A stretch of 64,000 nt of DNA from Patescibacteria group bacterium UBA4787 (GCA_002402995.1 DHGX01000004.1:246019-310018); one strand, 5' to 3'; counted from the stretch's first letter, positions 6,487-49,299 are shown. Numbers and translations are program-made. The notes: generated by a model from the sequence alone, not told the origin.

Positions 6487-6585
6487 AATGAATTAGAATT
6501 TAGAAAGTAGAAAATAAAATTAAAATATAAAATAAAAACAAAAAATAGAAAGTATGAATTAGAATTTATAATTTAGATTATTAAA

Positions 6586-7815
6586 TTAACGTAGAGACCA
6601 ACCAGTTCCTGGCTTAAAACAACAAATTCTTTTAGTTGGATCAAACCCATCGCCACAATCGGCAATATTAAGCCCCCCCGAACTTTCACAGACACTACAT
6701 AATTCTCTTTTTTCGTCTAAGTTACAACTTTTATCAGGATAAGGAGTGCACTTATTTTTAGAAAAATATCTATCTCCTGTTTCTGTTCCTGTTAATTTAA
6801 CGGTTACATAAGTGCAACCTTTTCGGGAGTGAACGACATCAAAAACTGACCCACTGCAACGCGTTCCTATTTGATTAGGAACAAAAGCGCTGGACGCAAT
6901 CATTGCTACAGGACCCAAAGGAGCAGCCACAAAAAAAGTATCAGCGCTTTGGCCGCAACTAAACTCATTGAGATCAACCTCTGGACCGCCGATAAAATAG
7001 TTTTTTAGCCCAGTTCCGTCTTCCTTAGCTAATGAAATCGTACCCGCCAACCTACATTCTGCTTTTTTAACATTATATTTAGTAGTAATATCTGGAGTCT
7101 TAGGATCCTTGGCGACATCTTCTCGCCATTTTAAGATATCAGACTGGGACACTTCAAGGTTTAATTCGCAAATAGTTCCAGCGCCGCACTCTGTACCAAT
7201 TACTTTCTGTAGTTGTCCATCGGAGGTAGTGACCATAGTGGAAACGCCGCACATCCGAGCGCCGATACGCGCATAAGCGCCTGGCTCACCAGACGGAGGG
7301 GTTGTCGTGAGGTCAAGGGGTTTATACCAACTAAATTGGGTCAATCGAATCGGAATATCCGTTGAAGCAATCTCGCGGGCAACGGGTTTAATCGTCAAGT
7401 CTTTAAATATGACCAAATTAGGATTAATAAAACTCAAAAAAGCATAAGCAAAAATAATAATCACTAAGCCCACTAAGGCGCTGGTGATCTGCGACTTAGC
7501 GCTGGTGATCGCGCTCACATTACCTCGACTGGTGATCATTTTAAAACCGGCCACCATAATCATTACTACGGCTAAAATAGCTACGGCGCTGATACCCCAT
7601 TTATAAGCCGCGATAATATAATCTCCGATACTTCGGCCTGTAATAGCGAAAAACGAACCTCCTTGTATTTTTGTTCCCGGAATAGTAACCTGTGGTATAA
7701 AATTAACGCCGCCGCTAGTTGGATTAGTTTGGGCTAAAACCGGTAAACTTAAAACGAGAAATAACAAGAAAAACAGTGTTACTAAAAAATAAATTTTTCT
7801 GTTTCGTAGGTTCAT
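6586..7815 (-). CDS. TrbC/VirB2-like pilin-fold membrane protein with a Cys-rich C-terminal extracellular extension (paralogue of 4127-5188)
   Basis: 409 aa. It has the same N-terminal module as 4127-5188 (GDYIIAAYKWGISAVAILAVVMIMVAGFKMITSRGN...ITSALVGLVIIIFAYAFLSFINPNL). The C-terminal roughly 250 aa contain many Cys (CGVS, CGAG, CSGS, CSVCESS, CGDGFDPTKRICC) but lack the C39 signature. Confidence 0.45.
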   Translation of the reverse strand: MNLRNRKIYFLVTLFFLLFLVLSLPVLAQTNPTSGGVNFIPQVTIPGTKIQGGSFFAITGRSIGDYIIAAYKWGISAVAILAVVMIMVAGFKMITSRGNVSAITSAKSQITSALVGLVIIIFAYAFLSFINPNLVIFKDLTIKPVAREIASTDIPIRLTQFSWYKPLDLTTTPPSGEPGAYARIGARMCGVSTMVTTSDGQLQKVIGTECGAGTICELNLEVSQSDILKWREDVAKDPKTPDITTKYNVKKAECRLAGTISLAKEDGTGLKNYFIGGPEVDLNEFSCGQSADTFFVAAPLGPVAMIASSAFVPNQIGTRCSGSVFDVVHSRKGCTYVTVKLTGTETGDRYFSKNKCTPYPDKSCNLDEKRELCSVCESSGGLNIADCGDGFDPTKRICCFKPGTGWSLR

Positions 7816-9433: not shown

Positions 9434-9473
9434 AGTTATATAAATTACGAATTACTAATTAATAATTACGAAT

Positions 9474-9625
9474 TATTAGAAAACGCAAAACTTAAAACGA
9501 AAAGCTCAAAAGAACAGTGTAAAATTCAAAACTTTAGCATATAAATACGCTCGTTTTTTTAATTCTATTTTAGGTTTTGAGCTATTGTTTTGCATTTTGC
9601 GCTTTTAGCTTTACGCTCACATCCT
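9474..9625 (-). repeat. Internally deleted copy of the roughly 460-bp four-helix-bundle gene cassette
   Basis: The sequence from 9541 to about 9625 is roughly 90% identical to 13318-13400. The sequence 9474-9535 matches 12944-12995. The roughly 305 bp of ORF body between them is absent. Confidence 0.6.
9506..9595 (-). pseudogene. Truncated remnant of a four-helix-bundle protein gene: the first 20 codons joined directly to the 3' flank
   Basis: Minus-strand translation from the ATG at 9595 gives MQNNSSKPKIELKKRAYLYA, near-identical to the N-terminus of the intact gene at 12995-13375 (MQNNNSKPKIELKKRVYLYA). It then runs into sequence matching the intact gene's 3' flank and stops after 29 codons. 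The flanks 9474-9535 and 9596-9625 match 12944-12995 and 13376-13402. Confidence 0.6.
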
Positions 9626-9629
9626 GTTA

Positions 9630-11645
9630 CTAAATATTCAAATCTTCTTTAGTTAAGTCTTCTGACATATCCCAGTCCACCTTTGTCGCTTCTGCTACAG
9701 GCTTCTCTGTGTTTTGTTTTTGCGATTGAGTAACGGCGGCTTTTTCTTCGGCCACCAATGATTCGGAAAACTCTTTTTTAGCTTTTTCTATTTCTAAAAT
9801 TTTTCTCGGATCGGTAGTGACTAACTGATCTTCCGAGTAAGAAGCTATTACTTTAATAGCGGCGTGCTTCGCGCCGGCGAAGAATATACCTTCGCCCACC
9901 CCGCACTCTAAAAGCAAATATTTTTCTCCTTCGGTCAACATAAATGTCGAGGCCACATTCTCAATGGCTGCTGGCGCTTGTTTTAATAAAAGCTGCAAGG
10001 CTGAATTGTTGATAATCGCCTTGCCATAAGAGGATGACAAGAAATCATTAACATCCTGCGTAATTGTAGTTATACCAAGATAATATTTACGGCAACGCTT
10101 AACCAAAGCAAAAATAAAACGGGCAGAATCTTCGTGCTGCATCAGCCACCATGCCTCGTCTATCACCAATATTCTTTTTTTCATCCGCGAACGAACAATA
10201 TTCCAAATATAATTTACGATGGTATAAATAGCGACTGGCCTCAATTCGTCTTCCAGATCGCGCACACTGAAAACGACCAATTGATTATCTATTTCCACGT
10301 TGGTCTGATGGTTTAACAAGCCGGAAAACGTTCCTTCTGTATATTTTTTTAAGCGCTCAGCTAAATCGCCGGCTCCTTCCATTCCCTCTAAAACTTGTTC
10401 TAAGTCGGAAAGCGTAGGCATAGTAACTTTAGATAAATCAACGCCCGGGACAATATCATTTTTAGCATAAGACTCCAAAAGCGCCCGATCCATAACAGAA
10501 TCTTCTCGAGGCGTAAATTGGCGGACTCCTCTCTCGTCGGGCGAGGCGATCATAATTTTTAACAAACCCTTTAGGATAATAACCGCGGAACGAATAAGAT
10601 TAGCCGTATCTACTTCACCCGTACTGGGCCGAGGAATATCAAATGGATTAATGCGGCTTTCTGAAGTTAAAGATATGTTAACAAAAGTGCCACCAACCGC
10701 GTCAGACAAATATTTATATTCTTTTTCCGGATCAATTATAATCACATCTGTACCGAGCATTAAGCTCCTCAAAATTTCCAACTTAATCGCATAGCTTTTC
10801 CCTGAGCCAGAAGTGGCAAAAACAACCATATTTCCATTTTGCAAACTAAAACGATCGAAAAGAATCAAACTATTATTGTGACGATTTATGCCGTATAAAA
10901 CCCCATCGTTTGATGTTAAATCAGACGAGATAAAGGGAAAAGAAGAAGCAATAGGCGAACTATTCATATTAAAATTGATCATTAACTCGTCGTTTCCCAA
11001 AGGAAGCGTCGAATTAAAGCCCTGTTCGGCTTGATATAAAACTCTCTTAGTATAAATCAGTTTTGAACCGAATAAAGTTTCTATTTTTTCAGAAGTATTA
11101 TCAAGATCTTTCGGATTATCGGCATAGATAGTAACATACAAAGCGAACTGGAAAAAATGTTCAACGCCAGTTGTTAAATCGTCTCTTAATTTTTCAATGT
11201 CTCTTAAAGCTGTTTCTTTTAAAGGATCTCGTGGCATGCCTTTCTCCTGTTCAGCGGCTATTTCTTGCTCTAAATTACCGGTTTTCTTCTGTAATTGTTT
11301 TAAAACTTCACCGGAAGGTACAGGATAAAAAAACATACCGATATCTAGAGGTCCATTAAAATTAATAACGGGCGCGAACCAACCAACGGCAATATAACGC
11401 GGATAAGTAATCACAAATATTGTTCTCACGTATTTATCTCCCAATTGAAGATAATTCGGCGTAATTCTCATAGAAGCCGGAGCAACAAGATCGCGCACCG
11501 AAACAACGCCGGCCAAATAAGCTTTTTCTTGTTCTAACGCCTCTTTGGTCTCTGTTGTTTTTATTTTTTCTGATATTTCTTTCTCTTGTTTTTTTATTTC
11601 TTCAGTCGGCGATTTAGTATTAATTGTCCTCGGATCAAAAACCAT
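9630..11645 (-). CDS. Type IV secretion system ATPase, VirB4/TrbE/TraC family
   Basis: 671 aa. Walker A VVFATSGSGKSY. Walker B and hydrophobic stretch RILVIDEAWWLM. The N-terminal domain is conserved with the CagE/TrbE/VirB4 family (DIGMFFYPV..., FQFALYVTIYADN). Confidence 0.8.
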   Translation of the reverse strand: MVFDPRTINTKSPTEEIKKQEKEISEKIKTTETKEALEQEKAYLAGVVSVRDLVAPASMRITPNYLQLGDKYVRTIFVITYPRYIAVGWFAPVINFNGPLDIGMFFYPVPSGEVLKQLQKKTGNLEQEIAAEQEKGMPRDPLKETALRDIEKLRDDLTTGVEHFFQFALYVTIYADNPKDLDNTSEKIETLFGSKLIYTKRVLYQAEQGFNSTLPLGNDELMINFNMNSSPIASSFPFISSDLTSNDGVLYGINRHNNSLILFDRFSLQNGNMVVFATSGSGKSYAIKLEILRSLMLGTDVIIIDPEKEYKYLSDAVGGTFVNISLTSESRINPFDIPRPSTGEVDTANLIRSAVIILKGLLKIMIASPDERGVRQFTPREDSVMDRALLESYAKNDIVPGVDLSKVTMPTLSDLEQVLEGMEGAGDLAERLKKYTEGTFSGLLNHQTNVEIDNQLVVFSVRDLEDELRPVAIYTIVNYIWNIVRSRMKKRILVIDEAWWLMQHEDSARFIFALVKRCRKYYLGITTITQDVNDFLSSSYGKAIINNSALQLLLKQAPAAIENVASTFMLTEGEKYLLLECGVGEGIFFAGAKHAAIKVIASYSEDQLVTTDPRKILEIEKAKKEFSESLVAEEKAAVTQSQKQNTEKPVAEATKVDWDMSEDLTKEDLNI

Positions 11646-12471: not shown

Positions 12472-12978
12472 TCAATCTTCTTTGTAAGCGCCACCCGTAT
12501 CTATTAATAGAGACAAATGGGAAAGCTTAGCGGTACTTAACGGTTTACGCGGTATCTCAATGTCGATTTTAGTTTTTTTTGCCCAATCTTTTTCTTCAAT
12601 TTTCGCTACGATTGGCCGCCAAATTCTTAATCCGGGTTTTCTGGCAGTTTGGAGAACGTTTAAAAAAAAGAAATGAATCGGCTTGCCGTTAACTCGACCG
12701 AAAGCCAACAAGCCAAAAATGATCAAAATTATTATTCCCTCCACTAAAAATAAACTAAAATCAGATGATTTATAGGCGATAAGCTCCAAAGCAGCCCCAA
12801 TAATTAAAATAACAAATTGTCTTGGTGTTAAGGGACCTAAAATATGAGGCTCAATATCGATAAATTGTGGAACGATAAATTGCATAGAAAGATTAGAATT
12901 TAGTAAGTAGAAAGTAGAAAATAGAATCAACGAATAATGAATTATTAGAAAGCGCAAAACGTAAAGCGAAAAACTCAA
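12472..12978 (-). CDS. Small membrane protein, possibly a VirB3/PrgI-like T4SS component
   Basis: 168 aa with 2-3 predicted TM helices (PRQFVILIIGAALELIAY; GIIILIIFGLLAFG). It is positioned upstream of the VirB4 homologue, as VirB3 usually is. The call rests mainly on position. Confidence 0.3.
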   Translation of the reverse strand: MSFSLYVLRFLIIHYSLILFSTFYLLNSNLSMQFIVPQFIDIEPHILGPLTPRQFVILIIGAALELIAYKSSDFSLFLVEGIIILIIFGLLAFGRVNGKPIHFFFLNVLQTARKPGLRIWRPIVAKIEEKDWAKKTKIDIEIPRKPLSTAKLSHLSLLIDTGGAYKED

Positions 12979-12994
12979 AATAACAGCGTAAAAT

Positions 12995-13375
12995 TTAAAA
13001 CTTTTTTTTTCCCCTTAATGTTAAAATACTGGAGCCAAGAATATTAGCAAGCTCTGTTGTTTCTTGAAGCAAGATTTCAGTTTTACTTCTGTCGGCTTTA
13101 GCAGAATCTCTTAACAACCCCAGCCAGAATTTACTTTCATTGGCGGATTTTAACGCGTAATTAAAAAAATTGGTAAAATCTCTTTTCGTGCTTCCCGCTT
13201 GAGCTTCTATAATGTTCGCGCCAATACTTGTAGCGCTTCGTAAAAGCTGTTTAGCGATTATTTGCGCGGTAAAATCATTTTTGCTCAAACCGTCAATAAA
13301 TTTAATAATATCCAAAGCGTATAAATATACTCGTTTTTTTAATTCTATTTTAGGTTTTGAGTTGTTATTTTGCAT
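12995..13375 (-). CDS. Four-helix-bundle protein (TIGR02436 / 23S rRNA intervening-sequence protein family)
   Basis: 126 aa. The sequence LDIIKFIDGLSKNDFTAQIIAKQLLRSATSIGANIIEAQAGSTKRDFTNFFNYALKSANESKFWLGLL is characteristic of this family. The gene sits inside the T4SS-like operon and is flanked by sequences repeated at 9474-9625. Confidence 0.75.
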   Translation of the reverse strand: MQNNNSKPKIELKKRVYLYALDIIKFIDGLSKNDFTAQIIAKQLLRSATSIGANIIEAQAGSTKRDFTNFFNYALKSANESKFWLGLLRDSAKADRSKTEILLQETTELANILGSSILTLRGKKKF

Positions 13376-13413
13376 TTTTCGTTTTTAGCTTTACGCTTAC
13401 TTCTATTTTCTAA

Positions 13414-17852: not shown

Positions 17853-17890
17853 CCCCAGTAGTAGAAACTTCGTTTCACTACGGGGCAGGC
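17853..17890. repeat. Short hairpin repeat CCCCAGTAGTAGAAA...TTCACTACGGGGCAGGC, related to the TIRs of the 139-bp element
   Basis: The sequence ccccagtagtagaaacttcgtttcactacggggcaggc forms an imperfect inverted repeat. A near-identical unit is at 49147-49192. The arms match the TIRs at 37765 and 46232 (ccaggtagtagaaa / ttcactacctgg). Confidence 0.5.
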
Positions 17891-27406: not shown

Positions 27407-28180
27407 TTAATTGGAATTTGAAATGCCTTGTAAGAACATATTTTTTAGGGTTTCGTCGTCTATCGCATCAAGCATATTTTTATCAACACCATTCTGCAAA
27501 AGTAACGCTCGGATTTCATTAACATTTAATAAAGAAGTGTCTTGATTTATGCCAGAATTGGCTTCAGATTGCCCGCTTAGATTCGGCGAGGATGTGCTAT
27601 TTTTTAAGACACTTTCGAGGTCTATGCCTGTTTCTTGTTTGGTTTCATTATACATATTTTTTAGGGTTTCGTCATCTATCTTATCCACCGCATCTTTAGA
27701 CATACCGCCCTGTGTAATTAAAATTTCTCTAATTTGGTCGGCGGTCAAATTATCCGCATTTTGCTCGCTTTTCGGAACACCAAAACTAATGGGCTGACCA
27801 GCCTTATTGTCTGGAAAATAACTGCCAACATTATTCGGCGTTGAAGCCGGATCAAGAGGGTTACTACCCGCTGAAACTTCTTCTTTGTCATTGAAACCGT
27901 CGCCATCAGAATCAGCTAAATATTTTGAGGTATGATAGTTGTTTTCTTCTTGCCAATCCGGAATTCCATCACCATCCGTATCCTTGTCTTGATTGTTTTT
28001 TAGAATATTTTTTAATTTTTCCGCCGAAGGATTAATTTTCGCCGCGAATGGCTGATAAATTGTGTTTTTAATTTTAAAATAACCGACGGTTAGAATAGAA
28101 ATAGAAAATATAACCAGACCGAATATTATAATTCCGTCTTTATAAGTATTAAAGAATAATTTTGAACCGATTTGTTTCAT
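27407..28180 (-). CDS. Secreted or N-anchored protein with thrombospondin-type-3-like Ca-binding Asp repeats and an internally duplicated helical module
   Basis: 257 aa. N-terminal TM. DTDGDGIPDWQEEN and DSDGDGFNDKEEV (DxDxDG). A duplicated module ...IREILITQGGMSKDAVDKIDDETLKNMYNE / ...IRALLLQNGVDKNMLDAIDDETLKNMFLQ. The DNA also shows the duplication (27420-27500 versus 27650-27730). Confidence 0.45.
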   Translation of the reverse strand: MKQIGSKLFFNTYKDGIIIFGLVIFSISILTVGYFKIKNTIYQPFAAKINPSAEKLKNILKNNQDKDTDGDGIPDWQEENNYHTSKYLADSDGDGFNDKEEVSAGSNPLDPASTPNNVGSYFPDNKAGQPISFGVPKSEQNADNLTADQIREILITQGGMSKDAVDKIDDETLKNMYNETKQETGIDLESVLKNSTSSPNLSGQSEANSGINQDTSLLNVNEIRALLLQNGVDKNMLDAIDDETLKNMFLQGISNSN

Positions 28181-28224
28181 AAATTAGAAAGTAGAAAATA
28201 GTAAACAGAAAGTAGAAAGTAGAA

Positions 28225-29079
28225 TTAAAAAATTATCATCGAATTGTAAATTTTTAACCAGTCAGCCAGCAATAAATCTTCCGCTCTAATCTGTTTATCA
28301 ATCTTAATTTCTTCAAAGACTTTTTCCCAAACGGCTCTTCTTTCGTCTTTATTCTCCACCTTTATTATATCATACGCAACCAAATTGTTAAGCAAAAATT
28401 TCCGGGGCGAAGAGAAACCATTTTTTATCAAATTGAATAATTCCTTTTCAATTATCTGTTCTGAAAAAATTCTCCTAGAAATAATTTTAACTATGGCAGA
28501 GTCTACCTTCGGGCTCGGAATAAAATTACCAGACGGAACCTTCAAAATAAATTTTGACTCTCCATAAAATTCGATAACATTAGATAAAATACTTCCCTTG
28601 TTATTTTTTCTGGTAATTCTTTCGGCCACTTCTTTTTGCATCATCAAAACAGCGAGACGCGGTAATAATTCTTTTGAAAAAAACCTTCTCAAAATTAATC
28701 CGGTGATTCGATAAGGAATGTTGGCAATTAATTTATAACTATAGATTGAATCGCCCAAAATTTTGTTTAAATCAACCTTAAGAATATCGCCTTGAATGAT
28801 TTTAATATTTTCGTAATCGCGGCATAATTTTTGGCAAATAGAAAATAGATCATTATCAAGCTCTACGGCGACAACCTGTTTAACCTTCTGCGCCAAAGCA
28901 CGAGTTAAAAAGCCAAAGCCCGGCCCAATTTCTAACACAACGTCGTTTGAATTTAAATCTGCTCCCTCGATAATTCTTTCTATAATATTCTCGTTAATCA
29001 AAAAATTCTGGCCGCGAAATTTATTCGGCTGAATTTTATACTTGGCAAGTATATTTTTAATTTCTATTGCCAAAGACAT
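28225..29079 (-). CDS. rsmA: 16S rRNA (adenine1518/1519-N6)-dimethyltransferase RsmA/KsgA
   Basis: 284 aa. RGQNFLINENIIERII; SAM-binding VLEIGPGFGFLTRAL; NIPY motif. Confidence 0.85.
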   Translation of the reverse strand: MSLAIEIKNILAKYKIQPNKFRGQNFLINENIIERIIEGADLNSNDVVLEIGPGFGFLTRALAQKVKQVVAVELDNDLFSICQKLCRDYENIKIIQGDILKVDLNKILGDSIYSYKLIANIPYRITGLILRRFFSKELLPRLAVLMMQKEVAERITRKNNKGSILSNVIEFYGESKFILKVPSGNFIPSPKVDSAIVKIISRRIFSEQIIEKELFNLIKNGFSSPRKFLLNNLVAYDIIKVENKDERRAVWEKVFEEIKIDKQIRAEDLLLADWLKIYNSMIIF

Positions 29080-31790: not shown

Positions 31791-33092
31791 TTGTTCGATT
31801 ATCGACGTATAGCAATAAAGATTATGGATATTAATAACGCCCAAAAACAGTCTATTGACGGCATTAACTCGCCTATTCATAAAAAAAATAAAATCAGAAT
31901 TAATCTCCTCAAAATTTGGGGTGGTATTCGTTCGTTTTTAATATATTCATCAGGGCCTATTCTTGTCGCTGTATTTAAAACCGTCAAATATTTAAAAGCG
32001 CAGACTCGTTTAATAAACTTCCAAGAAATATTCGCTGTTTTAAATAAAAAACAATTAATTTGGGTGGTTGTTTTAGCTATTACGTTTATATCATTTAGCG
32101 AAAATATCAATTCAAGCTCATTCGAGCAGAATAAGAACATCTTCCCCATTTTAATGTTGATTAAAAGCAATAAAATAGAAAATAAAATTATAACCGTAGA
32201 AGAAAAGATCGCCTATGTCGACGAAAAAACCACGGACAACCTGTCATACTTCAAAATAGCCGCTGCCTTAGATACCAATATTCCTGTTGTAAAAACCCCT
32301 GATAATAATACTACGGCCATGGGCGGCAGCGCGCTTATTAATCCAGACGCCCAAGACTATGAAGATGGTTATTCGGCGATGCGCGCCAATATTGAAAATT
32401 ATACTGTTCAACCCGGTGATACAATAAGTTCAATCGCCGAAAAATTTGAAATCACTCCAAAAACAATTACTTGGGAAAATAAATTATCTCTTAACGCGCC
32501 GTTGAAAGTCGGGAAAGAGTTAATAATTCTACCTATTAGCGGCGTCACGCATAAAGTAAAAAGCGGAGACAATGTATCTAAGATCGCCAAACTTTATCGA
32601 GCTAATCCAGAAGATATTATGGATTTTAATGATTTGGGCGGCGAATCAGATATTTTTGCCGGAGATATTTTAATCATTCCCGAAGGAACGCCACCGCCAC
32701 CGCCAGCCCCAATACCGACAGTTAAAAAATATGCCGACAAAACAGAGACCTTAAATACCAAAGACCTATCCAAGCCAGAAGGAAACAACTGCCATATTTT
32801 CGTTCCCGGCCAATGCACTTGGTATGTTGCTAAAAAAAGATGTGTTCCGTGGACAGGTCACGCTAAGTCTTGGCTATCCAACGCAAAAGCGCTTGGGTTC
32901 TCAACCGGCAAAACGCCGGCCTTGGGCGCGATAATTAACCTAAAAGAATCCTGGTATGGTCACGTTGGTTATGTAGAAGCCTTTGATGATCAAACAGTCA
33001 CTTTCTCCGAGATGAATCATCTTGGCCCGTGGAAAGCTTCTCGCCGCACCATTTCTTTGACAGATAAAAGAATTACAGGATATATTTATTAA
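31791..33092 (+). CDS. Secreted peptidoglycan hydrolase with 2 LysM domains and a C-terminal CHAP (Cys/His amidohydrolase/peptidase) domain
   Basis: 433 aa (alternative start at 31824). LysM: YTVQPGDTISSIAEKFEITPKTI and HKVKSGDNVSKIAKLYRANPEDI. CHAP: CHIFVPGQCTWYVAKKR...WYGHVGYVE. TM near the N-terminus. Confidence 0.75.
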   Translation: MFDYRRIAIKIMDINNAQKQSIDGINSPIHKKNKIRINLLKIWGGIRSFLIYSSGPILVAVFKTVKYLKAQTRLINFQEIFAVLNKKQLIWVVVLAITFISFSENINSSSFEQNKNIFPILMLIKSNKIENKIITVEEKIAYVDEKTTDNLSYFKIAAALDTNIPVVKTPDNNTTAMGGSALINPDAQDYEDGYSAMRANIENYTVQPGDTISSIAEKFEITPKTITWENKLSLNAPLKVGKELIILPISGVTHKVKSGDNVSKIAKLYRANPEDIMDFNDLGGESDIFAGDILIIPEGTPPPPPAPIPTVKKYADKTETLNTKDLSKPEGNNCHIFVPGQCTWYVAKKRCVPWTGHAKSWLSNAKALGFSTGKTPALGAIINLKESWYGHVGYVEAFDDQTVTFSEMNHLGPWKASRRTISLTDKRITGYIY

Positions 33093-33458
33093 AAACAGAA
33101 AATAGTAAGTAGAAAGTAGTCCCGATTAGTACAAAAACTAAAAGTTTTTGTTTACTAATCGAGGATCCACGATTTTGGAGCCATCGCAAAGCGATGGACA
33201 AAATCGGGAAAAATAGAATTAAAACAAAAAACAAAAACAAGAAAGTAGAATTTAGAATAAGACAAAATAAAAAAAGCGCCTAAAAACGCTTTTTATTTAT
33301 TAAAAATTATTAGCCTAATTTAGTTTTATTTCAAATTATTAACTATTCTGATGTTCTTGAGAACTTGAGAATAACATTTCAAATTTATTAATAAATCCGA
33401 AAAAACAAAAAACGCCCACAGAAGAGCGCTTTTATTTTTTTATATTATTCTATTTTCT

Positions 33459-33503
33459 CCCGCCAGCTCGCCACGCTTACGCGTTGGCGTAGCGGGCCGG
33501 CGG
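33459..33503. repeat. GC-rich imperfect palindrome cccgccagctcgccacgcttacgcgttggcgtagcgggccggcgg (same family as 42561-42633 and 40307-40369)
   Basis: A roughly 45-nt island of about 75% GC in an AT-rich intergenic region downstream of rplU. The outer arms ccgccagc and gccggcgg and the inner arms cgccacgc and gcgtagcg are self-complementary around a central acgcgt. Confidence 0.5.
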
Positions 33504-35987: not shown

Positions 35988-37694
35988 TTATTCATTAAAA
36001 GAAAAATCTATAACCTTCATCTGCAGTTCTTGGTTGCCGTTCCATTGATTAACCATTAAATGGAAAGCTAGATCGATTTTATCGCCCACCCTCAAGTCTT
36101 TGCCACCGTTAGCCAAGCCGTTGAAGAAGATAAATTTTTTCCCTTCTTTACTCACAATTCTTAAATGATTATTCTGCTGACCGACCCATTGTAAATCTCC
36201 AACCTCTAAATTATTAACCAAAAATAAAGGGCGTTTATTGTCTCGGCCGAAAGGCGCAAATTTTTGTATATCTTCGTAAGTCTCCCATGTTATATCAGGC
36301 AAGGATAACTCTGTCTCAATAAATATTTTATTAGTAAAATCCGTTTCCGCGAGTTTTTGATTAGCCAACACACGAATTTGCGCGACAAAATCGTTCACAT
36401 CTTTTTTGTTCTTCGCTTCGAAACCACAAGCGCCGGCATGACCACCAAAACGAATAAAATAATGTTCTAAAATTTTCAAATTCTCCACCAAGTTAAAATT
36501 TTCATTGCTTCGACCGGAACCAGCTATATCTTTATTCCTAATGGTCATTACTAAAACGGGTCTTTGATAAGTTTCCTGTAATTTACCAGCGATAAGGCCA
36601 ATCAACCCGACCGGCCAATTTTCCCCCATAGCAACAATGATTTTTTCTTGTAATTGATCGGGTATTTGTTTTTGGATAATCTCTTTATATATTTCTTCCA
36701 CTAATTTTTGTCTTTTGCCGTTAATTTGGTTCAGTTCAACAGAGACTTCTTCTGCTTTATCCGCATCATCGGTTAGAATTAAATCTAAAGCTGTTTTGGC
36801 ATGATAAAGTCTGCCCACGGCATTAAGTCTCGGACTTAAACAAAATTCTATATCGCCTGCTTCAATATCGCCCAAATTTAAACCGGCGCTTTTAATTAAT
36901 GCTCGCAGTCCCATGCGGCTGGTTTTATTCAAAACAACTAAGCCATATTTGACTAAAGTGCGATTTTCTCCTTTTAAAACCATACTGTCGGCAACTGTGC
37001 CGATAGCCACTAAATCTAAAAGCCATTTTTCAAAAGACTCCCAATTGTCCTGAGTTTGATTCTTTAATTTTTTAGCAAAAGCCTGCGCAACCTTGAAGGC
37101 TACGCCCACACCGGCTAAATTTTTAAAGGGATAATTATTTTCGCAATGTGGATTAATAATCGCCAAGGCGTCAGGCAATTTATCTTGTGACAAATGATGA
37201 TCTGTAACAATAACATCTAACCCTAATTCTTTGGCCAAATCAATTTGCGAAAAATTAGTAACACCGCAATCGCAAGTTACAATTAAACCGGCTCCGTTTT
37301 CTTTGATAGAACGCACTGCTTTCTCGTTTAGACCATAGCCTTCTTTTTCTCTATCTGGAATATAAACCTCAACATTTTGCAATCCGATTTTCTTAAAAAG
37401 ATTCCACAAAACGGCGCTGGCGGTAATGCCGTCAGCGTCATAATCGCCGTAAATAAAAACCTTCTCCTGTTTTTCTTTGGCCAATAAAATCCTTTCTATC
37501 AACCTGTCCATATCTTTGAATAAGAATGGATCGTGAAGGTCTTGAGAATAATCGGGCAATAAAAACTCATCAACAGAACGCTGATCTGTTAAGCCACGAT
37601 TAAACAATAACTGCAAAATAAATGGATTTAATTCGGGAAAAAGAGAAATTAAAGATTTCTCGATTTTAGGCGCTAACTGCCAATTTTTTTTCAT
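35988..37694 (-). CDS. recJ: Single-stranded-DNA-specific exonuclease RecJ
   Basis: 568 aa. DHH phosphoesterase motifs (IYGDYDADGITASAVL; VTDHH). DHHA1 domain (GGHAGACG). C-terminal OB-like domain. Confidence 0.9.
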   Translation of the reverse strand: MKKNWQLAPKIEKSLISLFPELNPFILQLLFNRGLTDQRSVDEFLLPDYSQDLHDPFLFKDMDRLIERILLAKEKQEKVFIYGDYDADGITASAVLWNLFKKIGLQNVEVYIPDREKEGYGLNEKAVRSIKENGAGLIVTCDCGVTNFSQIDLAKELGLDVIVTDHHLSQDKLPDALAIINPHCENNYPFKNLAGVGVAFKVAQAFAKKLKNQTQDNWESFEKWLLDLVAIGTVADSMVLKGENRTLVKYGLVVLNKTSRMGLRALIKSAGLNLGDIEAGDIEFCLSPRLNAVGRLYHAKTALDLILTDDADKAEEVSVELNQINGKRQKLVEEIYKEIIQKQIPDQLQEKIIVAMGENWPVGLIGLIAGKLQETYQRPVLVMTIRNKDIAGSGRSNENFNLVENLKILEHYFIRFGGHAGACGFEAKNKKDVNDFVAQIRVLANQKLAETDFTNKIFIETELSLPDITWETYEDIQKFAPFGRDNKRPLFLVNNLEVGDLQWVGQQNNHLRIVSKEGKKFIFFNGLANGGKDLRVGDKIDLAFHLMVNQWNGNQELQMKVIDFSFNE

Positions 37695-37764
37695 TTATAT
37701 ATAAAAATGTTTAACAAGGAAGAAAATACTGAATTATTATATATCAATACGGCGTTTTTGGCAA

Positions 37765-37902
37765 ACCAGGTAGTAGAAATTCGATGCTTCTTAAGGTGCG
37801 ATTATTAAGAATGTACTGGAAGCAAAAAATTAGTTATTTTATTAATGACGAAACCAAGCAGTGGAATGAAGCGAAAAGCACTATCGAATTTTCACTACCT
37901 GG
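37765..37902. repeat. Copy 1 of a roughly 139-bp element with roughly 20-bp terminal inverted repeats (accaggtagtagaaattcgatgc ... gcactatcgaattttcactacctgg), about 70 nt upstream of the recJ start
   Basis: Roughly 85% identical to 46232-46370. The two ends are reverse complements of each other. In this copy the inverted symmetry extends into the flanks (tttggcaaa / tttgccaaa). Confidence 0.7.
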
Positions 37903-38001
37903 CAAATTTGCCAAAAGATATCAACTGGACAAAACGCTTAAAATGTGATAGATTTAATTATATAAAATATAAAGATCTTTAAAAACAAAAGGAGAATAAC
38001 A

Positions 38002-40369: not shown

Positions 40370-40412
40370 AGAATAATTAGGTTAATTTATTTTGACTTCT
40401 ACTTACTATTTT

Positions 40413-41918
40413 CTATTTACTATTTTCTGTTTTTGGTCTCATAGTCGGGAACAAAATGCCTTCTTTGATATTGTGAATATTGGTAAAAAGCATTAACAAG
40501 CGATCAATACCGATTCCTTCGCCGGCTGTTGGCGGCATGCCGTATTTTAAAGCTTCCACAAAATCATTATCAGCTGACTGGGCTTCTTCATCCCCTTTCG
40601 CCAATAACTCTTGCTGTTCTTTAAAGCGGTTTTCTTGGTCTAGCGGATCATTTAACTCCGAATAGGCGTTGCAAAATTCCGCGCCGGCTATCACCAACTG
40701 AAATCTTTCAACGTATTTAGGATTATTTTCTATTTTTTTAGCCAAAGGAGAAAGTTCTATGGGATGATTAATAATAAATACCGGATTAATTAATTTCGGC
40801 CTAACCAATTCTTTATATATCTCATCAATTAATTTTCCCTTGCCCCATTTTTTCTCTATTTTTAAACCCATATCTATTGCTTTCTCGGCCAAATCGGTTG
40901 CTTCGGGATAATCTACTATGTCAATGTTAGCGTGTTCAATTAAAGCTTGCCGATAATCTAATTTAGGAAACGGTGTTTTAAATGAAAGACGATGGTTGCC
41001 GTAGATCAGTTCCTCGCCGCCGGTTAATTCTTGAACCAAGAAAGACATTAATTCTTCGGTTAATCTCATTAAATCACGATAATCAGCATAGGCTTGATAA
41101 AATTCTATTTGGGTAAATTCCGGGTTATGCGCCCAGTCAATCCCTTCGTTGCGAAAACATTTTGCCACTTCGTAAACTTTTTCAAAACCTCCGACAATTA
41201 GTCTTTTTAAATACAATTCCGGCGCGATTCTTAAATACATATCAATATCCAAAGCATTGTGATGTGTGGTAAAAGGTTTGGCCGCGGCGCCACCGGCCAT
41301 AGGCTGTAAAATCGGCGTTTCCACTTCAAGATAATCGCGTTCATCAAAAAAACGCCTGATTAATTTGATCAAGCGGCTGCGGGTAATAAAAACATTTTTA
41401 ACTTCGGGATTGGCCAATAAATCCAAATATCTTTTCCTGGACTTAAGCTCCGGATCAGACAAGCCATGCCATTTTTCCGGCAAAGGCAACAACGTCTTGG
41501 ATAAAAGTTTTAATTTTTCAACAACCAAAGTTTTTTCATTGGTTTTTGTCAAAAACAAGGTGCCTTCAATTTCAATAAAATCTCCGACATCAATATTGTC
41601 AACAAAAAAAGTATAAGTTTCCGCGCCAATGATATCGTGTTTTAAATAAATTTGCATCCGTCCGGTGCCGTCTTCCAAATCGGCGAAGCTCGCCTTGCCA
41701 TGACCGCGCATCAATCTTAAGCGTCCGACCAAAGAAATTTTGTCTCCTTTTTTTAAAAGACTATCAAAATCTTCACACACCTCATTTATGGTATGTGTTC
41801 GACGGCAAGTTGAAATATAAGGATTGATTCCTTTTTCTTTGATATTATTTAATTTTTCTAAACGGCTTTGTTCTTCGGACATGGTTATCATTATATATCT
41901 TAACAATTCACAAGTCAA
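40413..41918 (-). CDS. lysS: Lysine--tRNA ligase (class II)
   Basis: 501 aa. N-terminal OB anticodon-binding domain. Class II motifs 1-3 (..FRNEG..; GGAAAKPF; GIGIDRLLML). The true start may be the internal Met (MSEEQSRL). Confidence 0.9.
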   Translation of the reverse strand: MTCELLRYIMITMSEEQSRLEKLNNIKEKGINPYISTCRRTHTINEVCEDFDSLLKKGDKISLVGRLRLMRGHGKASFADLEDGTGRMQIYLKHDIIGAETYTFFVDNIDVGDFIEIEGTLFLTKTNEKTLVVEKLKLLSKTLLPLPEKWHGLSDPELKSRKRYLDLLANPEVKNVFITRSRLIKLIRRFFDERDYLEVETPILQPMAGGAAAKPFTTHHNALDIDMYLRIAPELYLKRLIVGGFEKVYEVAKCFRNEGIDWAHNPEFTQIEFYQAYADYRDLMRLTEELMSFLVQELTGGEELIYGNHRLSFKTPFPKLDYRQALIEHANIDIVDYPEATDLAEKAIDMGLKIEKKWGKGKLIDEIYKELVRPKLINPVFIINHPIELSPLAKKIENNPKYVERFQLVIAGAEFCNAYSELNDPLDQENRFKEQQELLAKGDEEAQSADNDFVEALKYGMPPTAGEGIGIDRLLMLFTNIHNIKEGILFPTMRPKTENSK

Positions 41919-42442: not shown

Positions 42443-42560
42443 AATGAGTTAGAATTTATCCCGATTTCTTTCAAATCTTCTGATTTGATAAAGAAATCGA
42501 GTATCTCGACCGAAACGTCGGGAGAGTTTAGAAAATATAAAGTAGAAAATAGAAGTTAAA

Positions 42561-42633
42561 TCCGCCAGATGACTCGCCTCGCTGACCCGCTACGCCAATG
42601 CGTTAGCGTGGCGAGAGCTCCGGCGAAGCGGGC
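42561..42633. repeat. GC-rich imperfect palindromic element (ccgccagatgactcgcctcgctgacccgctacgccaatgcgttagcgtggcgag...ccggcgaagcgggcg)
   Basis: Contains cccgctacgccaatgc, the reverse complement of gcgttggcgtagcggg at 33481-33496. It shares the CCGCCAG(A/C)TG core with 40307-40369 and 33459-33503. Confidence 0.5.
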
Positions 42634-42668: not shown

Positions 42669-43181
42669 TTAGATTATATTTTGCAGTTGTTTGAAAGCGA
42701 TTGGCAGTAAGGGGGCTAAAATTTTAGCTACAGCGATAAAAAACTTTGCTACCGAAGAATTATTAATCATTTGCGCTAAAGCGCCAATAGGAAATTTCAA
42801 AATAAAAGTTAAAAGCATACCCAAAAGTAAAGAACCTTCTAAAAAACCTAGGACCGAGCCGACGATGCGATTAATTGTTTTTAAAAATGGAATAAAAGTC
42901 AAAATCTTGAAAACCTTATCCAGCATCATAAAAACCATATTGCTCAATTTCCAAACAATCGCTAAAATCACCAAAAATGAAACAATGCGACAGATATTCA
43001 GATTATTCCCAAAAAGAAATCCAATTCTTTCGGCCAGTATTTCGTACCACCGCGAAGCTAAAATTACCCCAGCGAAAACACCCACTAAACCACCGACCTT
43101 ATAAATCAGACCAAACCACCATCCTGTAAAAGTGAAGGCGAAAACCAATAAAATTAAAATTAAATCAATAAAAGACATCAT
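42669..43181 (-). CDS. cvpA: CvpA family membrane protein
   Basis: 170 aa. 4 TM helices, with N-terminal MMSFIDLILILLVFAFTFTGWWFGLIYKVGGLVGVFAGV typical of CvpA. Confidence 0.7.
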   Translation of the reverse strand: MMSFIDLILILLVFAFTFTGWWFGLIYKVGGLVGVFAGVILASRWYEILAERIGFLFGNNLNICRIVSFLVILAIVWKLSNMVFMMLDKVFKILTFIPFLKTINRIVGSVLGFLEGSLLLGMLLTFILKFPIGALAQMINNSSVAKFFIAVAKILAPLLPIAFKQLQNII

Positions 43182-43347
43182 AGAATTAGAAAATAGAAAT
43201 TAGAAATTAAAATTACGAATCACGAAACATATAGCGTAAAACATGAAGCGTGTAGCATGAAGCTCTGGGCTCTCCGCCCAAGGCGGATCCGCCTCTGGCG
43301 GACAAGTCCCTTCCAGTCTCCGAGATTCAAGATTATATTAACATTTT

Positions 43348-44905: not shown

Positions 44906-46231
44906 TTATGAATTGAATTTATCAATGAAATATGATGTTAGTTCGCTGATGGTTATTCTTTCTTGTTTCATGCTGTCGCGTTCGCGAACCGTTACTTTTT
45001 TGTCATCAAGAGAGTCAAAATCAACAGTTGTGCAATAAGGTGTGCCGATTTCATCTTGGCGGCGATAACGTTTGCCGATAGATTGTGTTTCGTCGTAATT
45101 AACCGTGAAATGTTTTCTTAATTCATCGGCAATCGATTTGCTTATTCCTTCTAACTCAGGTTTTTTGGAAAGCGGCAAAACCGCAATTTTAATCGGCGCT
45201 AAATACTTAGGCAATCTTAAAACTACTCTCTTCTCTGTTTCGCCCTTCTCGGCGGTTGGCGCGTCTTCTTCGTCATAGTGTTCAACTAAAACCGCCAAAA
45301 CCGACCGGTCAACGCCGAAAGTCGGTTCAATCACGTGCGGAATAAATTTTTCGTTAGTTGTGGGATCGGTATAATTCATATCTTCTTTGGAAAATTCCTG
45401 ATGATTTTTCAAATCAAAATCAGCGCGGTAAGCAATGCCGTATAATTCTTTGGTGCCGAAAGGAAAATCATAATCAATATCAATGGTGCGTTTGGAATAA
45501 TGAGCGCGTTCTCCGTCGGGAATTTCGCGAAAATGAATATGCTCTGATTTTAAACCTAAAAATTTCATCCAGTTTTTCATTTGTTCCAACCAATAATCAA
45601 ATTGCTCTTCCCAACCGCCCTTAGCCGACGGACTAATAAAATATTCTATTTCCATTTGTTCAAATTCGCGGGTTCGAAAAATATAATTTCCCGGGGTAAT
45701 TTCGTTACGAAAAGCCTTGCCGATTTGAGCAATACCAACAGGGATTCTCTGGCGAGTGGCGTTTAAAACCGATTTAAAATCAACAAACATAGCTTGCGCG
45801 GTTTCCGGACGAAAATATACTACGCTCGCCTCGTCTTCCACCGGACCGAGGTGTGTTTTTAACATCATATTAAACATTTTGGCTTCGGTTAAAGTTCCAC
45901 CGCACTCTTTAGCGTGATTCTCGGAAATTTGATCAACGCGAAAACGGGTGTGGCATTTTTTACATTCCACTAACGGATCGGTAAAATTTTTCAAATGGCC
46001 GCTCGCCTCCCAAACTTTGGGGTTCATAATTAAGGCCGCGTCAATGCCAACCATGTCGCCGCGCTGTTGCACAAACATGCGCCACCAAGCCTGTTTAATG
46101 TTATTCTTGAGTTCCACGCCCAACGGCCCATAATCCCAGGAATTGGCTAAACCGCCATAAATTTCGCTGCCGGGGAAGATAAAACCTCGGCGTTTGGCTA
46201 AAGAAATTAATTGTTCTATATCTTTTAACAT
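44906..46231 (-). CDS. glyS: Glycine--tRNA ligase (dimeric alpha2, eukaryote/archaeal-like type)
   Basis: LISLAKRRGFIFPGSEIYGGLANSWDYGPLGVELKNNIK and class II motifs. The ORF track extends the N-terminus with a TTG at 46294 through the repeat element. The first ATG, at 46231, lies directly at the element boundary and is taken as the start. Confidence 0.85.
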   Translation of the reverse strand: MLKDIEQLISLAKRRGFIFPGSEIYGGLANSWDYGPLGVELKNNIKQAWWRMFVQQRGDMVGIDAALIMNPKVWEASGHLKNFTDPLVECKKCHTRFRVDQISENHAKECGGTLTEAKMFNMMLKTHLGPVEDEASVVYFRPETAQAMFVDFKSVLNATRQRIPVGIAQIGKAFRNEITPGNYIFRTREFEQMEIEYFISPSAKGGWEEQFDYWLEQMKNWMKFLGLKSEHIHFREIPDGERAHYSKRTIDIDYDFPFGTKELYGIAYRADFDLKNHQEFSKEDMNYTDPTTNEKFIPHVIEPTFGVDRSVLAVLVEHYDEEDAPTAEKGETEKRVVLRLPKYLAPIKIAVLPLSKKPELEGISKSIADELRKHFTVNYDETQSIGKRYRRQDEIGTPYCTTVDFDSLDDKKVTVRERDSMKQERITISELTSYFIDKFNS

Positions 46232-46370
46232 ACCAGGTAGTAGAAATTCGATGCTTCTTGGGGTGCGATTATTTAAAGAATGCACCAGAAACAAAAATTA
46301 GTTATTTTATTAATAATGAGACCAAATAGTAAATCGAAGCGGAAAGCACTATCGAATTTTCACTACCTGG
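46232..46370. repeat. Copy 2 of the roughly 139-bp terminal-inverted-repeat element, abutting the glyS start codon and downstream of the fpg stop
   Basis: accaggtagtagaaattcgatgcttcttgggg...gcactatcgaattttcactacctgg. It aligns end to end with 37765-37902. The differences are mostly transitions plus two small indels. Confidence 0.7.
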
Positions 46371-46407
46371 CATAATGAAAATATTTTAACAAAAGCCGAC
46401 AAAATGT

Positions 46408-47244
46408 CTATCGCTGACAAGACGGACAATAACTGGTGCCGCGCTCGGCCAATGTTATTTTCTTAACCATGCCGCCGCACCTAAAACACTTTTTGCCTTC
46501 TCGGCCATAGACTCTTAATCTTGGCACGTAATCACCCTCTTTCCCTTGGGCGTCTAAATATGTATCGGATGATGTGCCCCGATATTTAATTGAATTTTTT
46601 AAAATTTGTTTAAGACACTTATAAATATTTTTAATATCCCTATCTGCCAAAGTTTTAATCAAGCGGGTGGGCAATATCTTGGCGCAAAAACAAATCTCCT
46701 GGCTATAAATATTACCAATACCCGAAATAAAAGTCTGGTCTATTAAAAGGGGTTTTATCTTTTGATTCGGTTTATGTTTTAGTAATTCAATAAATTTTTT
46801 GAGAGTGAAGTCTTTTTCTAAAGGTTCCGGGCCAAAATTTTGGCCAGCAAAATATTCATCTAATTCGTTGGTTTTTATCGGCCTGACATAACCGAACTGG
46901 CGAATATCGTTATGAATAAGGCAGCTGTTATCATCAAAGTAATAAATCAGATGTGTATGTTTATCAATTTTCTGATTAATGTCGCGGGGCGGTATAAAAA
47001 TGATTTGGCCGGTTAACTTAAAATGGATTACTAAACTATAATTATTGTTTAAGCTAATAATTAAAACCTTGCCCCGCCGACTGACTTTTTTTATCGTAGT
47101 CCCTTGAAATAGGCTCTTAAATTTTATCGGAGCCATTAATTGGACAATTTTAGGCAATCTGATTTCAATCTTTTTTATTTTTTTGCCAACGATAAAATTG
47201 TTTAATTGTCTTTTTATTGTTTCTACTTCTGGTAATTCTGGCAT
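46408..47244 (-). CDS. mutM: Formamidopyrimidine-DNA glycosylase (Fpg/MutM)
   Basis: The N-terminal MPELPEVETI gives the catalytic Pro2 and Glu3. H2TH domain. C-terminal zinc finger CFRCGGMVKKITLAERGTSYCPSCQ. The ORF track extends 9 codons upstream to 47271. Confidence 0.85.
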   Translation of the reverse strand: MPELPEVETIKRQLNNFIVGKKIKKIEIRLPKIVQLMAPIKFKSLFQGTTIKKVSRRGKVLIISLNNNYSLVIHFKLTGQIIFIPPRDINQKIDKHTHLIYYFDDNSCLIHNDIRQFGYVRPIKTNELDEYFAGQNFGPEPLEKDFTLKKFIELLKHKPNQKIKPLLIDQTFISGIGNIYSQEICFCAKILPTRLIKTLADRDIKNIYKCLKQILKNSIKYRGTSSDTYLDAQGKEGDYVPRLRVYGREGKKCFRCGGMVKKITLAERGTSYCPSCQR

Positions 47245-47611
47245 ACCCCGTATATCATCTTCCGGAGCCAAACGCTTTTTAACAACATTTATACTCTTGA
47301 AGTTTTAAGCCAAGGAATCGACATCCTTAGTATTTTTAAATAATGCTTTTGGCGTTTGGCATTTTACTCGACGAAACAACCTTTAAAATAGATAAACTGG
47401 AATAGCGAATGAAATGTGGTGGGAGAAGATAACTCTCTAAAAAATGCGCTGGAAGTTGTATTACGGGGCATAAGAAATTATTTTAACATTTTAGCATTAT
47501 AACATTAAAAAAATTTGCCCGTCCTCGCCTTCCGCCGTCGCCGAATTTTTTACCCCGTAGAGTCGCGGAGCGACTCCTTCGGGGCGTGCCAGTGAAACTG
47601 GCGCGCCGAAA

Positions 47612-49123: not shown

Positions 49124-49148
49124 TGGTGGGCAGTATAGGAATCGAACC
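49124..49148 (-). other. tRNA 3'-end-like fragment (T-loop, acceptor 3' strand and CCA: GGTTCGATTCCTATACTGCCCACCA) with no intact tRNA body
   Basis: The reverse complement of 49124-49148 is a canonical tRNA 3' terminus. Upstream sequence cannot be folded into D-arm, anticodon-arm or T-stem partners. The fragment is immediately followed by the hairpin repeat at 49147-49192. Confidence 0.45.
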
Positions 49149-49192
49149 CCAGTAGTAGAACCTCGACGAACTCGGTTCACTACGGGGCAGGC
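49147..49192. repeat. Hairpin repeat CCCCAGTAGTAGAAcc...TTCACTACGGGGCAGGC (same family as 17853-17890)
   Basis: ccccagtagtagaacctcgacgaactcggttcactacggggcaggc forms an imperfect inverted repeat. It is followed by a second GC hairpin ggggcagg...cttgcccc at 49184-49218. Confidence 0.5.
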
Positions 49193-49227
49193 TTATAGTC
49201 TCTGCAACTTGCCCCGTTAGATTTAAT

Positions 49228-49299
49228 GCGCGATGCTGGAATCGAACCAGCGACCTTTCCGATGTGAACGGAACGCTCTACCGCTGAGCTAATCGCGCC
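49228..49299 (-). tRNA. tRNA-Val (anticodon CAC)
   Basis: The minus strand reads GCGCGAT-TA-GCTC-AGCGGTA-GAGC-G-TTCCG-TTCACAT-CGGAA-AGGTC-GCTGG-TTCGATT-CCAGC-ATCGCGC-A. All four stems pair perfectly (7/4/5/5 bp), and U33 and A37 are in place. The 3' CCA is not encoded. Confidence 0.75.

Follow-up and report, generated by a model that had tools for sequence, protein, structure and literature searches.

MITEs (miniature inverted-repeat transposable elements), such as the Correia elements (CREE) of Neisseria, are multicopy sequences of ~70-160 bp which have terminal inverted repeats (TIRs) and a short target-site duplication (TSD), contain no open reading frame (ORF), and are often co-transcribed with their neighbors as a long hairpin. 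Here, we analyzed a 64,000-nt stretch of Patescibacteria group bacterium UBA4787 (GCA_002402995.1 DHGX01000004.1:246019-310018; hereafter the window), in which an element that resembles these MITEs is present twice, once upstream of recJ and once at the start codon of glyS. We estimate a probability of about 80% that the two repeats are non-autonomous, MITE-like members of a family of tiny TIR elements distributed throughout Patescibacteria, the full form of which is ~306-327 bp long and carries a GIY-YIG nuclease gene. This family may be likened to CREE and other bacterial MITEs in all of the above features. Unlike CREE, however, it has a different TIR sequence and a 4-bp TATG duplication instead of TA, ~70% of its members lie at start codons, and its TIR-sharing partner codes for a GIY-YIG nuclease rather than a DDE transposase.

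Two other groups of small elements are comparable. Free-standing GIY-YIG homing genes (T4 Seg and I-TevI relatives) are also tiny selfish nuclease units, and the present family likewise shows signs of spreading laterally into one site of diverged genomes, with recombination of the flanks. In contrast to them, the present family has TIRs, TSDs, and MITE derivatives and occupies many unrelated genes which have only TATG in common; its nuclease is a protein of 86-91 amino acids from the UPF0213/SLX1 branch without a separate DNA-binding domain, and it is encoded only by the 306-327-bp relatives and not by the window copies. The IS200/IS605 and REP/RAYT systems are similarly very small, with hairpin-forming ends and abundant non-autonomous palindromic derivatives, but they use HUH Y1 transposases and insert beside a tetranucleotide without a TSD, whereas the present family shows a 4-bp TSD and GIY-YIG proteins only.

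The closest relatives of the nuclease in sequence and fold are UPF0213 proteins (Bacillus halodurans BH0048, Enterococcus faecalis EF2693, and Escherichia coli YhbQ) and eukaryotic SLX1. SLX1 cleaves branched and hairpin DNA, an activity that would suit an enzyme acting on a TIR cruciform; it requires SLX4 and carries a RING domain. To our knowledge, the UPF0213/SLX1 relatives are single-copy cellular genes without TIRs, and we know of no insertion-sequence family whose sole protein is a GIY-YIG nuclease. Full-text literature searches brought up no account of a GIY-YIG element bounded by TIRs, nor of MITEs at start codons in the candidate phyla radiation (CPR, Patescibacteria). By comparison of descriptions, the nearest published observation is that of GIY-YIG ORFs within non-intron insertions of CPR rRNA genes, which seem not to have spread by homing (PMC11270868). 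These insertions come from the same host group, and TIRs, target duplications, short derivatives, and start-codon insertions are not described there.

The pair of repeats had been noticed in a preliminary description of the window, and it is real (137 and 138 bp, ~88% identical over the whole length and 84% in the interiors alone), except that the first base assigned to it, an A, belongs to a flanking 4-bp repeat. Both copies belong to the same subfamily and have the same orientation relative to the downstream minus-strand gene, as had been stated: The GTGAAAA-type TIR comes first in copy 2, and copy 1 is alike. The ~20-bp TIRs (CCAGGTAGTAGAAATTCGA... / ...TCGAATTTTCACTACCTGG) were also confirmed by pairing over ~19-22 nt, and the family consensus CCAGGTAGT(GA/AG)AAATTCGA is present at both ends of the copies. 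A 22-mer at the left end, CCAGGTAGTAGAAATTCGATGC, occurs exactly twice in the window and in none of 100 shuffled versions. Folding of the RNA gave a long hairpin of -39.2 kcal/mol (z = -6.2) for copy 2 in the sense of glyS and -31.5 kcal/mol (z = -4.4) for the minus strand of copy 1.

Target-site duplications, for which the preliminary description had proposed a search, were found as 4-bp direct repeats at both copies, CAAA and CATA (table 1). On the minus strand, copy 2 is preceded and followed by TATG. The ATG nearer to the gene serves as the start codon of glyS, which is supported by the agreement of the GlyRS N-terminus MLKDIEQLISLAKRRGF with its homologs. The element thus abuts this ATG, as had been thought, with a single T in between. 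Only one ORF is found in the window copies, a 23-codon upstream ORF (uORF) that begins at the other, captured ATG. It is not conserved across the family: After MPGSENS(T/I), the peptides of different copies are not related, and locus L043 has a frame-shifting indel, so that we rejected it as a coding sequence. In-frame read-through into the host protein was also rejected, as element lengths are not divisible by three and stop codons are present in each of the copies. In summary, the window copies are shorter than 500 bp and lack coding capacity, have TIRs at their ends and a TSD that varies with the site, and occur at multiple unrelated loci. Structurally, this feature is a MITE, whereas its partner and its target are unusual.

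Copy 1 is an atypical insertion with the TSD CAAA/TTTG. It lies 71 nt from the recJ ATG at 37694 (70 nt had been given) and at the center of a palindrome between the promoters of the divergent recJ and a 295-aa ORF: The flanks 37755-37765 and 37903-37916 rebuild a perfect 20-bp palindrome, TTTTGGCAAATTTGCCAAAA, with TTTTGGCAAA and TTTGCCAAAA on the two sides of the insertion. This palindrome could be an operator or a pair of -35 elements.

To describe the family, the pattern CAGGTAGTRRAAATTCGA was scanned against one genome per species (596 Gb), which gave at least 117 stretches (loci L001-L117). Calling of TIR pairs with up to three mismatches yielded 107 bounded elements within these 117 public loci. 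Among the matches listed, paired inverted matches were almost all from metagenome-assembled genomes (MAGs) of Patescibacteria, including Parcubacteria, Portnoy-, Yanofsky-, Lipton-, Nealson-, and Paceibacteria. By chance, ~70 matches would be expected in 596 Gb, which is roughly the number of single-arm matches in other phyla; chance therefore accounts for those in non-CPR genomes. Carriage by phages was considered and rejected, since the four matches in viral contigs were single arms without a partner and were regarded as chance matches.

The elements fall into three size classes: 20 elements of ~60-80 nt (about 67), 79 of ~110-160 nt (about 130), and 5 of 306-327 nt; in the matches listed, none of the 107 exceeds 327 bp. 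Almost all of them (102/107) have one GTGAAAA arm and one GTAGAAA arm, so that the stem always has, at a fixed position, a single G.U pair and a single A.C mismatch. At least 20 copies are present in MAG GW2011_GWB1_40_14 and at least 14 in Portnoybacteria CG08. The window subfamily was additionally found at three unrelated loci of MAG H41-bin211_1 (L043, L114, and L009), with 78-88% identity that is restricted to the element, and the same MAG holds a full-length element (L042).

The interiors of different subfamilies are unrelated to one another. Approximately 40 of the 76 mid-size copies have a 6-8-bp GC hairpin beside the left TIR, which is kept through compensatory changes (e.g., in L018, L022, L027, L068, and L105), with stems of many different sequences, and is followed by an internal tCACTATCTGG motif that repeats the TIR tip. 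The window subfamily retains the internal TIR-tip motif without the GC hairpin, and the long nuclease-bearing elements have neither. The two TIR arms show 16 changes that affect the same position alike in both, compared with ~0.4 expected; such paired changes fit either a selected hairpin or two ends bound by one protein. In loci L009 (~2600-2650) and L121 (1240-1275), a variant left end, GGATAGGCGTAGGCAGGCGGGGAAAATTCGATAG, replaces the usual CCAGGTAGTG tip, which suggests that the end was exchanged or that these copies are hybrids with a different type of TIR.

For comparison of the flanks, all elements were turned so that the GTGAAAA arm leads. In 65 of 101 elements, the 4 bp on one side match the 4 bp on the other. 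TATG is the commonest flank (55 on the right and 47 on the left), and the other flanks (CAAA, CGTA, TAAG, CCTG, CTGG, AAAA, and TATA) co-vary, indicating that these bases are a target-site duplication and not part of the element. The distal ATG opens a long ORF in 60 elements; 10 more are located at a start codon in the opposite orientation, and ~5 further elements represent boundary-shifted cases at start codons. Overall, ~70% of the elements lie exactly at the authentic start codons of housekeeping genes, and most others within ~30 nt upstream of an ORF start. The host ORFs have canonical N-termini, for example SecA, RecA, FtsA, MurG, MurC, enolase, Ndk, S20, L31, SecE, AlaRS, ArgRS, and, in the window, GlyRS. 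Of 76 TATG-type insertions, 70 coincide with start codons, compared with ~19% if they were random among TATG sites that do not interrupt an ORF. This comparison of flanks shows that insertion apparently makes a 4-bp TSD with a strong preference for TATG at a gene start codon. It also shows that one ATG appears to be restored to the host ORF and the other to be captured upstream, in full-length elements mostly in frame with the nuclease (MPGSENSTAI-MFYY...).

The captured ATG was preceded by a Shine-Dalgarno sequence in 2 of 50 sites, compared with 14% of ordinary ORF starts and 9% of random positions. A -10-like TAnnnT that ends 6-9 nt before the ATG is common at insertion sites (TATAATttggatATG, TAAAATaaagatATG, and, at the window glyS, TAAAATattttcattATG), and a -10-like box at -7 was found in 22% of insertion sites versus 10% of ordinary gene starts. 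Both sites that were retrieved by protein search closely follow an upstream gene; even so, TAAAAT is present six bases ahead of the ATG. At ORF starts in general (L001-L117 and the window), Shine-Dalgarno-like sequences occur at ~14%, T is the most frequent base at position -1 (45%), and the -10-like box peaks 6 nt before the ATG. The scarcity of Shine-Dalgarno motifs together with the -10-like box close to the ATG suggests that leaderless or near-leaderless mRNAs may be used widely in these Patescibacteria.

The 306-327-nt class (L042, L053, L057, and L105), as well as two elements retrieved through their protein (L201 and L211), contains one ORF of 86-91 amino acids each. This ORF takes up all of the sequence between the TIRs and ends with a stop codon immediately next to the distal TIR. 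In a fifth long element, L108, the ORF is missing on the oriented strand and is apparently on the other strand. The protein matched the Pfam GIY-YIG family (PF01541) with E ~1e-17, and its nearest solved structures by sequence are UPF0213 BH0048 and EF2693, followed by SLX1. An AlphaFold model (pLDDT 86) gave 1zg2 and Slx1 as the best fold matches in PDB, with I-TevI being remote. Multiple alignment of 42 sequences showed invariant residues that include Y4, R27, H31, N32, and E51. The nuclease of the long elements is therefore a member of the GIY-YIG superfamily and of its UPF0213/SLX1 branch. These longer elements have the same TIRs as the MITEs and encode nothing but this nuclease, the putative mobilizing protein.

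A search of protein clusters (90% identity) revealed 1,264 clusters matching the nuclease at E < 1e-5. The top 120 are 74-100% identical, and all named ones come from Patescibacteria. Some 68 of these 120 gene calls begin with MPGSENS(T/I)xIMFYY, that is, with the flanking ATG and the left TIR translated in frame with the nuclease. These N-termini are independent of ascertainment by the DNA pattern and show that the nuclease gene regularly comes with the TIR and the ATG beside it. Nonsynonymous divergence of the nuclease genes (pN 0.11-0.19) is far below synonymous divergence (pS 0.66-0.92, saturated), implying strong purifying selection.

Several loci bear on the movement and the age of the elements. 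L201 and L205 carry an element that is 100% identical over 300 nt, whereas their flanking genes are only ~78% identical, and in L207 and L209 an upstream flank from one of them is joined, at the element, to a downstream flank from the other. These cases point to recent lateral spread and to recombination at the element. On the other hand, the glyS ATG is also occupied by the same subfamily in a groundwater contig (L121) that encodes a GlyRS of 76% identity, indicating that the glyS insertion is old and inherited. The L121 copy has the variant left end and a second, unrelated MITE nested inside; this nested element (L121 1290-1394) is ~105 bp long, with the TIR CCCCCACACC/GGTGTGGGGG and the duplication TTTAC. 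GlyRS loci at 72% identity or less have no element, and their upstream DNA is too diverged to align. A look-up of the GlyRS protein found no record under either start. Two Logan contigs with identical RecJ (L119 and L120) both stop where the element has its far end, ~200 nt upstream of recJ, indicating that the repeat breaks short-read assemblies.

A possible mechanism may be outlined as follows. The nuclease would recognize the TIR hairpin or cruciform and cut at its base, which is the junction between element and duplication; it would also cut the target with a 4-nt stagger, and the move would be finished by host repair and ligation. Without a promoter or ribosome-binding site of its own, the nuclease would be expressed from the host promoter and the captured start codon. 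An ORF that begins at a captured 5'-terminal AUG would suit leaderless expression, and many host genes look leaderless. The host ORF might be translated from the regenerated ATG by reinitiation or by Shine-Dalgarno-independent initiation; in the long form, the stop codon of the nuclease lies 19-21 nt upstream of this ATG, and the TIR stem would hold the two AUGs adjacent in the RNA. The window copies would require the nuclease in trans. Taken together, the family may represent an unrecognized class of minimal autonomous element of ~0.32 kb, which encodes only an SLX1-like nuclease, targets the points where transcription or translation of genes starts (TATG, in many cases at leaderless promoters), and captures a start codon for leaderless expression, while the host gene is expressed via the TIR hairpin (by reinitiation, loop-out, or bypass), with the window repeats as its non-autonomous offspring. 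We propose this more specific scheme tentatively and place it slightly below even odds.

Several observations weigh against these interpretations. The case for mobility and for a role of the nuclease is comparative throughout. No GIY-YIG nuclease is known to us to perform cut-and-paste transposition by itself, and the GIY-YIG enzymes known to us make no 4-nt staggers. Neither tblastn nor a family profile in six frames detected a GIY-YIG gene in the 64-kb window; a weak tblastn match at 47334-47438 (E 0.15), considered as a decayed nuclease element, was rejected as the six-frame profile search did not support it. Exact pairs of filled and empty alleles were found neither among the RecJ loci (only filled loci or broken contigs) nor among glyS relatives. 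Within genomes, MITE interiors are only 54-67% identical (median) while the TIRs are intact, as expected of old copies. As elements were found through one intact TIR, TIR conservation is inflated, which does not affect L201, L211, or the MPGSENS N-termini. The preference for start codons could reflect either target recognition (e.g., of melted promoter DNA) or selection, and the latter could contribute. Finally, the enrichment of leaderless-type promoters at insertion sites is weak (P-value = 0.04, or 0.11 with matched controls), and specific targeting of such promoters was not adopted as a conclusion and is kept as a working idea.

We weighed these points together with four alternatives. The first is a free-standing homing-endonuclease gene that only homes to the same site, the short forms being relics of deletion in situ. 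It would explain why, in diverged backgrounds, an identical element is found at the same site and marks the recombination junctions, why the glyS copy is vertically inherited, and why two nuclease alleles are each confined to a single locus across many samples. It is nevertheless unlikely, since a non-coding subfamily with a shared interior occurs at different loci (copies 1 and 2, L043, L114, and L009), at least 20 copies with a common hairpin and motif architecture occupy different genes in one MAG, and the variable, co-varying 4-bp duplications at dozens of genes are unlike a long homing site. Homing and transposition may both occur.

Old copies whose TIR arms stay intact and co-vary while the interiors drift, the occupation of essential genes, and the compensatory changes in the GC hairpins of ~40 of the 76 mid-size copies would also be expected of a domesticated start-site cassette, the hairpin of which is kept by the host to tune translation or stability of housekeeping mRNAs, mobility having long been lost. 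We consider this quite unlikely: TIR conservation is partly a matter of ascertainment, an identical element in diverged genomes implies recent movement, and the nuclease is under purifying selection; a role in expression, moreover, is proposed from sequence only.

A third possibility, that the MITEs belong to a conventional insertion sequence whose transposase was not seen and that the GIY-YIG gene is a frequent passenger, appears improbable. All prokaryotic MITEs known to us are mobilized by DDE or HUH transposases, and longer partners could lie beyond the matches listed in the genome scan. However, none of the 107 elements exceeds 327 bp, and the nuclease ORF fills the element completely; the nuclease forms more than 1,260 clusters, in which most gene calls have the translated TIR as their N-terminus, and is under strong purifying selection while the TIRs stay invariant. 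The last alternative, a dedicated structured 5'-leader RNA of recJ and glyS (riboswitch- or attenuator-like, with the TIRs as P1 helix), which the preliminary description had also proposed, is largely refuted: The -39.2 kcal/mol hairpin in glyS-sense RNA, the location of copy 2 necessarily in or at the 5' end of any glyS mRNA started upstream, and some blocks that are invariant within the six-copy subfamily would agree with it, but Rfam gave no match to the element either at the gathering threshold over the window or in a permissive scan of copy 2 (at E <= 10, only microRNA-precursor noise at E 2-8), the TIR stem is the only well-supported pairing in the covariation check of the six copies and is equally explained by transposon ends, dozens of unrelated genes have the same TIRs at their starts, enclosing a nuclease gene or interiors that are unrelated to one another, and the 4-bp target duplications and the recJ promoter-like site downstream of copy 1 also oppose it.

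The features of the window are listed in table 1. A promoter-like site just upstream of copy 2, whose -10 ends 9 nt before the captured ATG, means that glyS transcripts need not begin inside the element, contrary to what the preliminary description had concluded. A weaker match inside copy 2 is based on the TTAATAAAATAAC block, which is invariant in the six copies of the window subfamily. The recJ promoter-like site is located downstream of copy 1, and copy 1 is thus probably not in the recJ leader. Across the family, 23 of 76 mid-size copies have an outward promoter-like site, compared with 18.9 +/- 3.4 in shuffles; a family-wide outward promoter was ruled out by this lack of excess. Of the earlier suggestion of a MITE that supplies a promoter, the MITE-like nature therefore stands (TIRs, co-varying TSDs, many copies, and protein-coding long forms), whereas the promoter is not a property of the family. 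The artificial extension of ORF predictions through the element was borne out for glyS (to a TTG at 46294) and not for recJ, which has an in-frame TAA directly upstream of its ATG.

Table 1. Positions of elements, duplications, promoter-like sites, and short hairpins in the window
Feature	Position	Strand	Description
MITE copy 1	37766..37902	minus	137 bp, non-coding; divergent intergenic region of recJ and 295-aa ORF
MITE copy 2	46233..46370	minus	138 bp, non-coding; GTGAAAA-type TIR first on glyS strand
TIR arm, copy 2	46346..46370		GTGAAAA type on minus strand
TIR arm, copy 2	46233..46254		GTAGAAA type; abuts glyS ATG
TSD, copy 2, gene-proximal	46229..46232	minus	TATG; contains glyS start ATG 46231-46229
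TSD, copy 2, distal	46371..46374	minus	TATG; captured ATG opens 23-codon uORF MPGSENSIVLSASIYYLVSLLIK into element
TSD, copy 1, recJ-proximal	37762..37765		CAAA (TTTG on minus strand)
TSD, copy 1, distal	37903..37906		CAAA
Promoter-like site upstream of copy 2	46383..46410	minus	TAGACA-16-TG-TAAAAT, 10/12; no Shine-Dalgarno
Promoter-like site inside copy 2	46304..46333	minus	TTTACT-18-TAAAAT, 9/12
recJ promoter-like site	37736..37764	minus	TTGCCA-17-TATAAT, 11/12; begins inside duplicated TTTG
Short hairpin, sister TIR type	17853..17890	minus	GCCTG CCCCGTAGTGAAAC..GTTTCTACTACTGGGG; shortly upstream of minus-strand ORF start
Second short hairpin, sister type	49147..49192	minus	embedded in tRNA-like 3' fragment beside tRNA-Val

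The two short hairpins reported previously were found to exist and have the core GTAGTGAAA/TTTCTACTAC in common with the TIRs. TIRs of the related CCCCGTAGT type occur in loci L049 and L098. The second hairpin is held by a tRNA-like 3' fragment (…GGTTCGATTCCTATACTGCCCACCA; 49125-49215, minus strand) directly downstream of tRNA-Val (49227-49298). That this fragment is a tRNA with the hairpin as an insert was rejected: ARAGORN was negative even with the hairpin deleted, and Rfam found no tRNA or transfer-messenger RNA there; a permissive Rfam scan of 49.0-49.3 kb returned tRNA-Val only.

Other repeats were also observed in the window. AT-rich intergenic repeats, TAGAAAGTAGAAAATAG, are present in both orientations (6487-6590, 12894-12938, 28178-28236, 33073-33258, 40390-40434, 42522-42566, and 43164-43231) and are a separate repeat family. 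Two pairs of ~100-nt segments that are 78-86% identical (9439-9633 and 12908-13413) suggest that an intergenic module or the end region of a gene was duplicated. A GC-rich 36-nt sequence, CTCGCCACGCTTACGCGTTGGCGTAGCGGGCCGGCG, occurs twice in inverted orientation (33467-33502 and 42580-42615; 89% complementary), which is unusual for a genome whose GC content is 33-44%.

In practical terms, elements of this family mislead gene callers, as seen from glyS stretched to a TTG and from nuclease calls starting with MPGSENS, and they break assemblies (L119 and L120). A nuclease this compact, with a hairpin as its defined substrate, could also be of interest for biotechnology. If the nuclease does mobilize the elements, this would be a new route of prokaryotic transposition in which a structure-specific GIY-YIG nuclease replaces the transposase, and the full form would be the smallest self-contained mobile element known to us, below any known insertion sequence. 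The occupation of start codons of essential genes in the streamlined CPR genomes raises the question of how the start codon, or a leaderless transcription start, is recognized in the DNA, and of how a gene is translated that is separated from its promoter by a hairpin of 130-320 nt.

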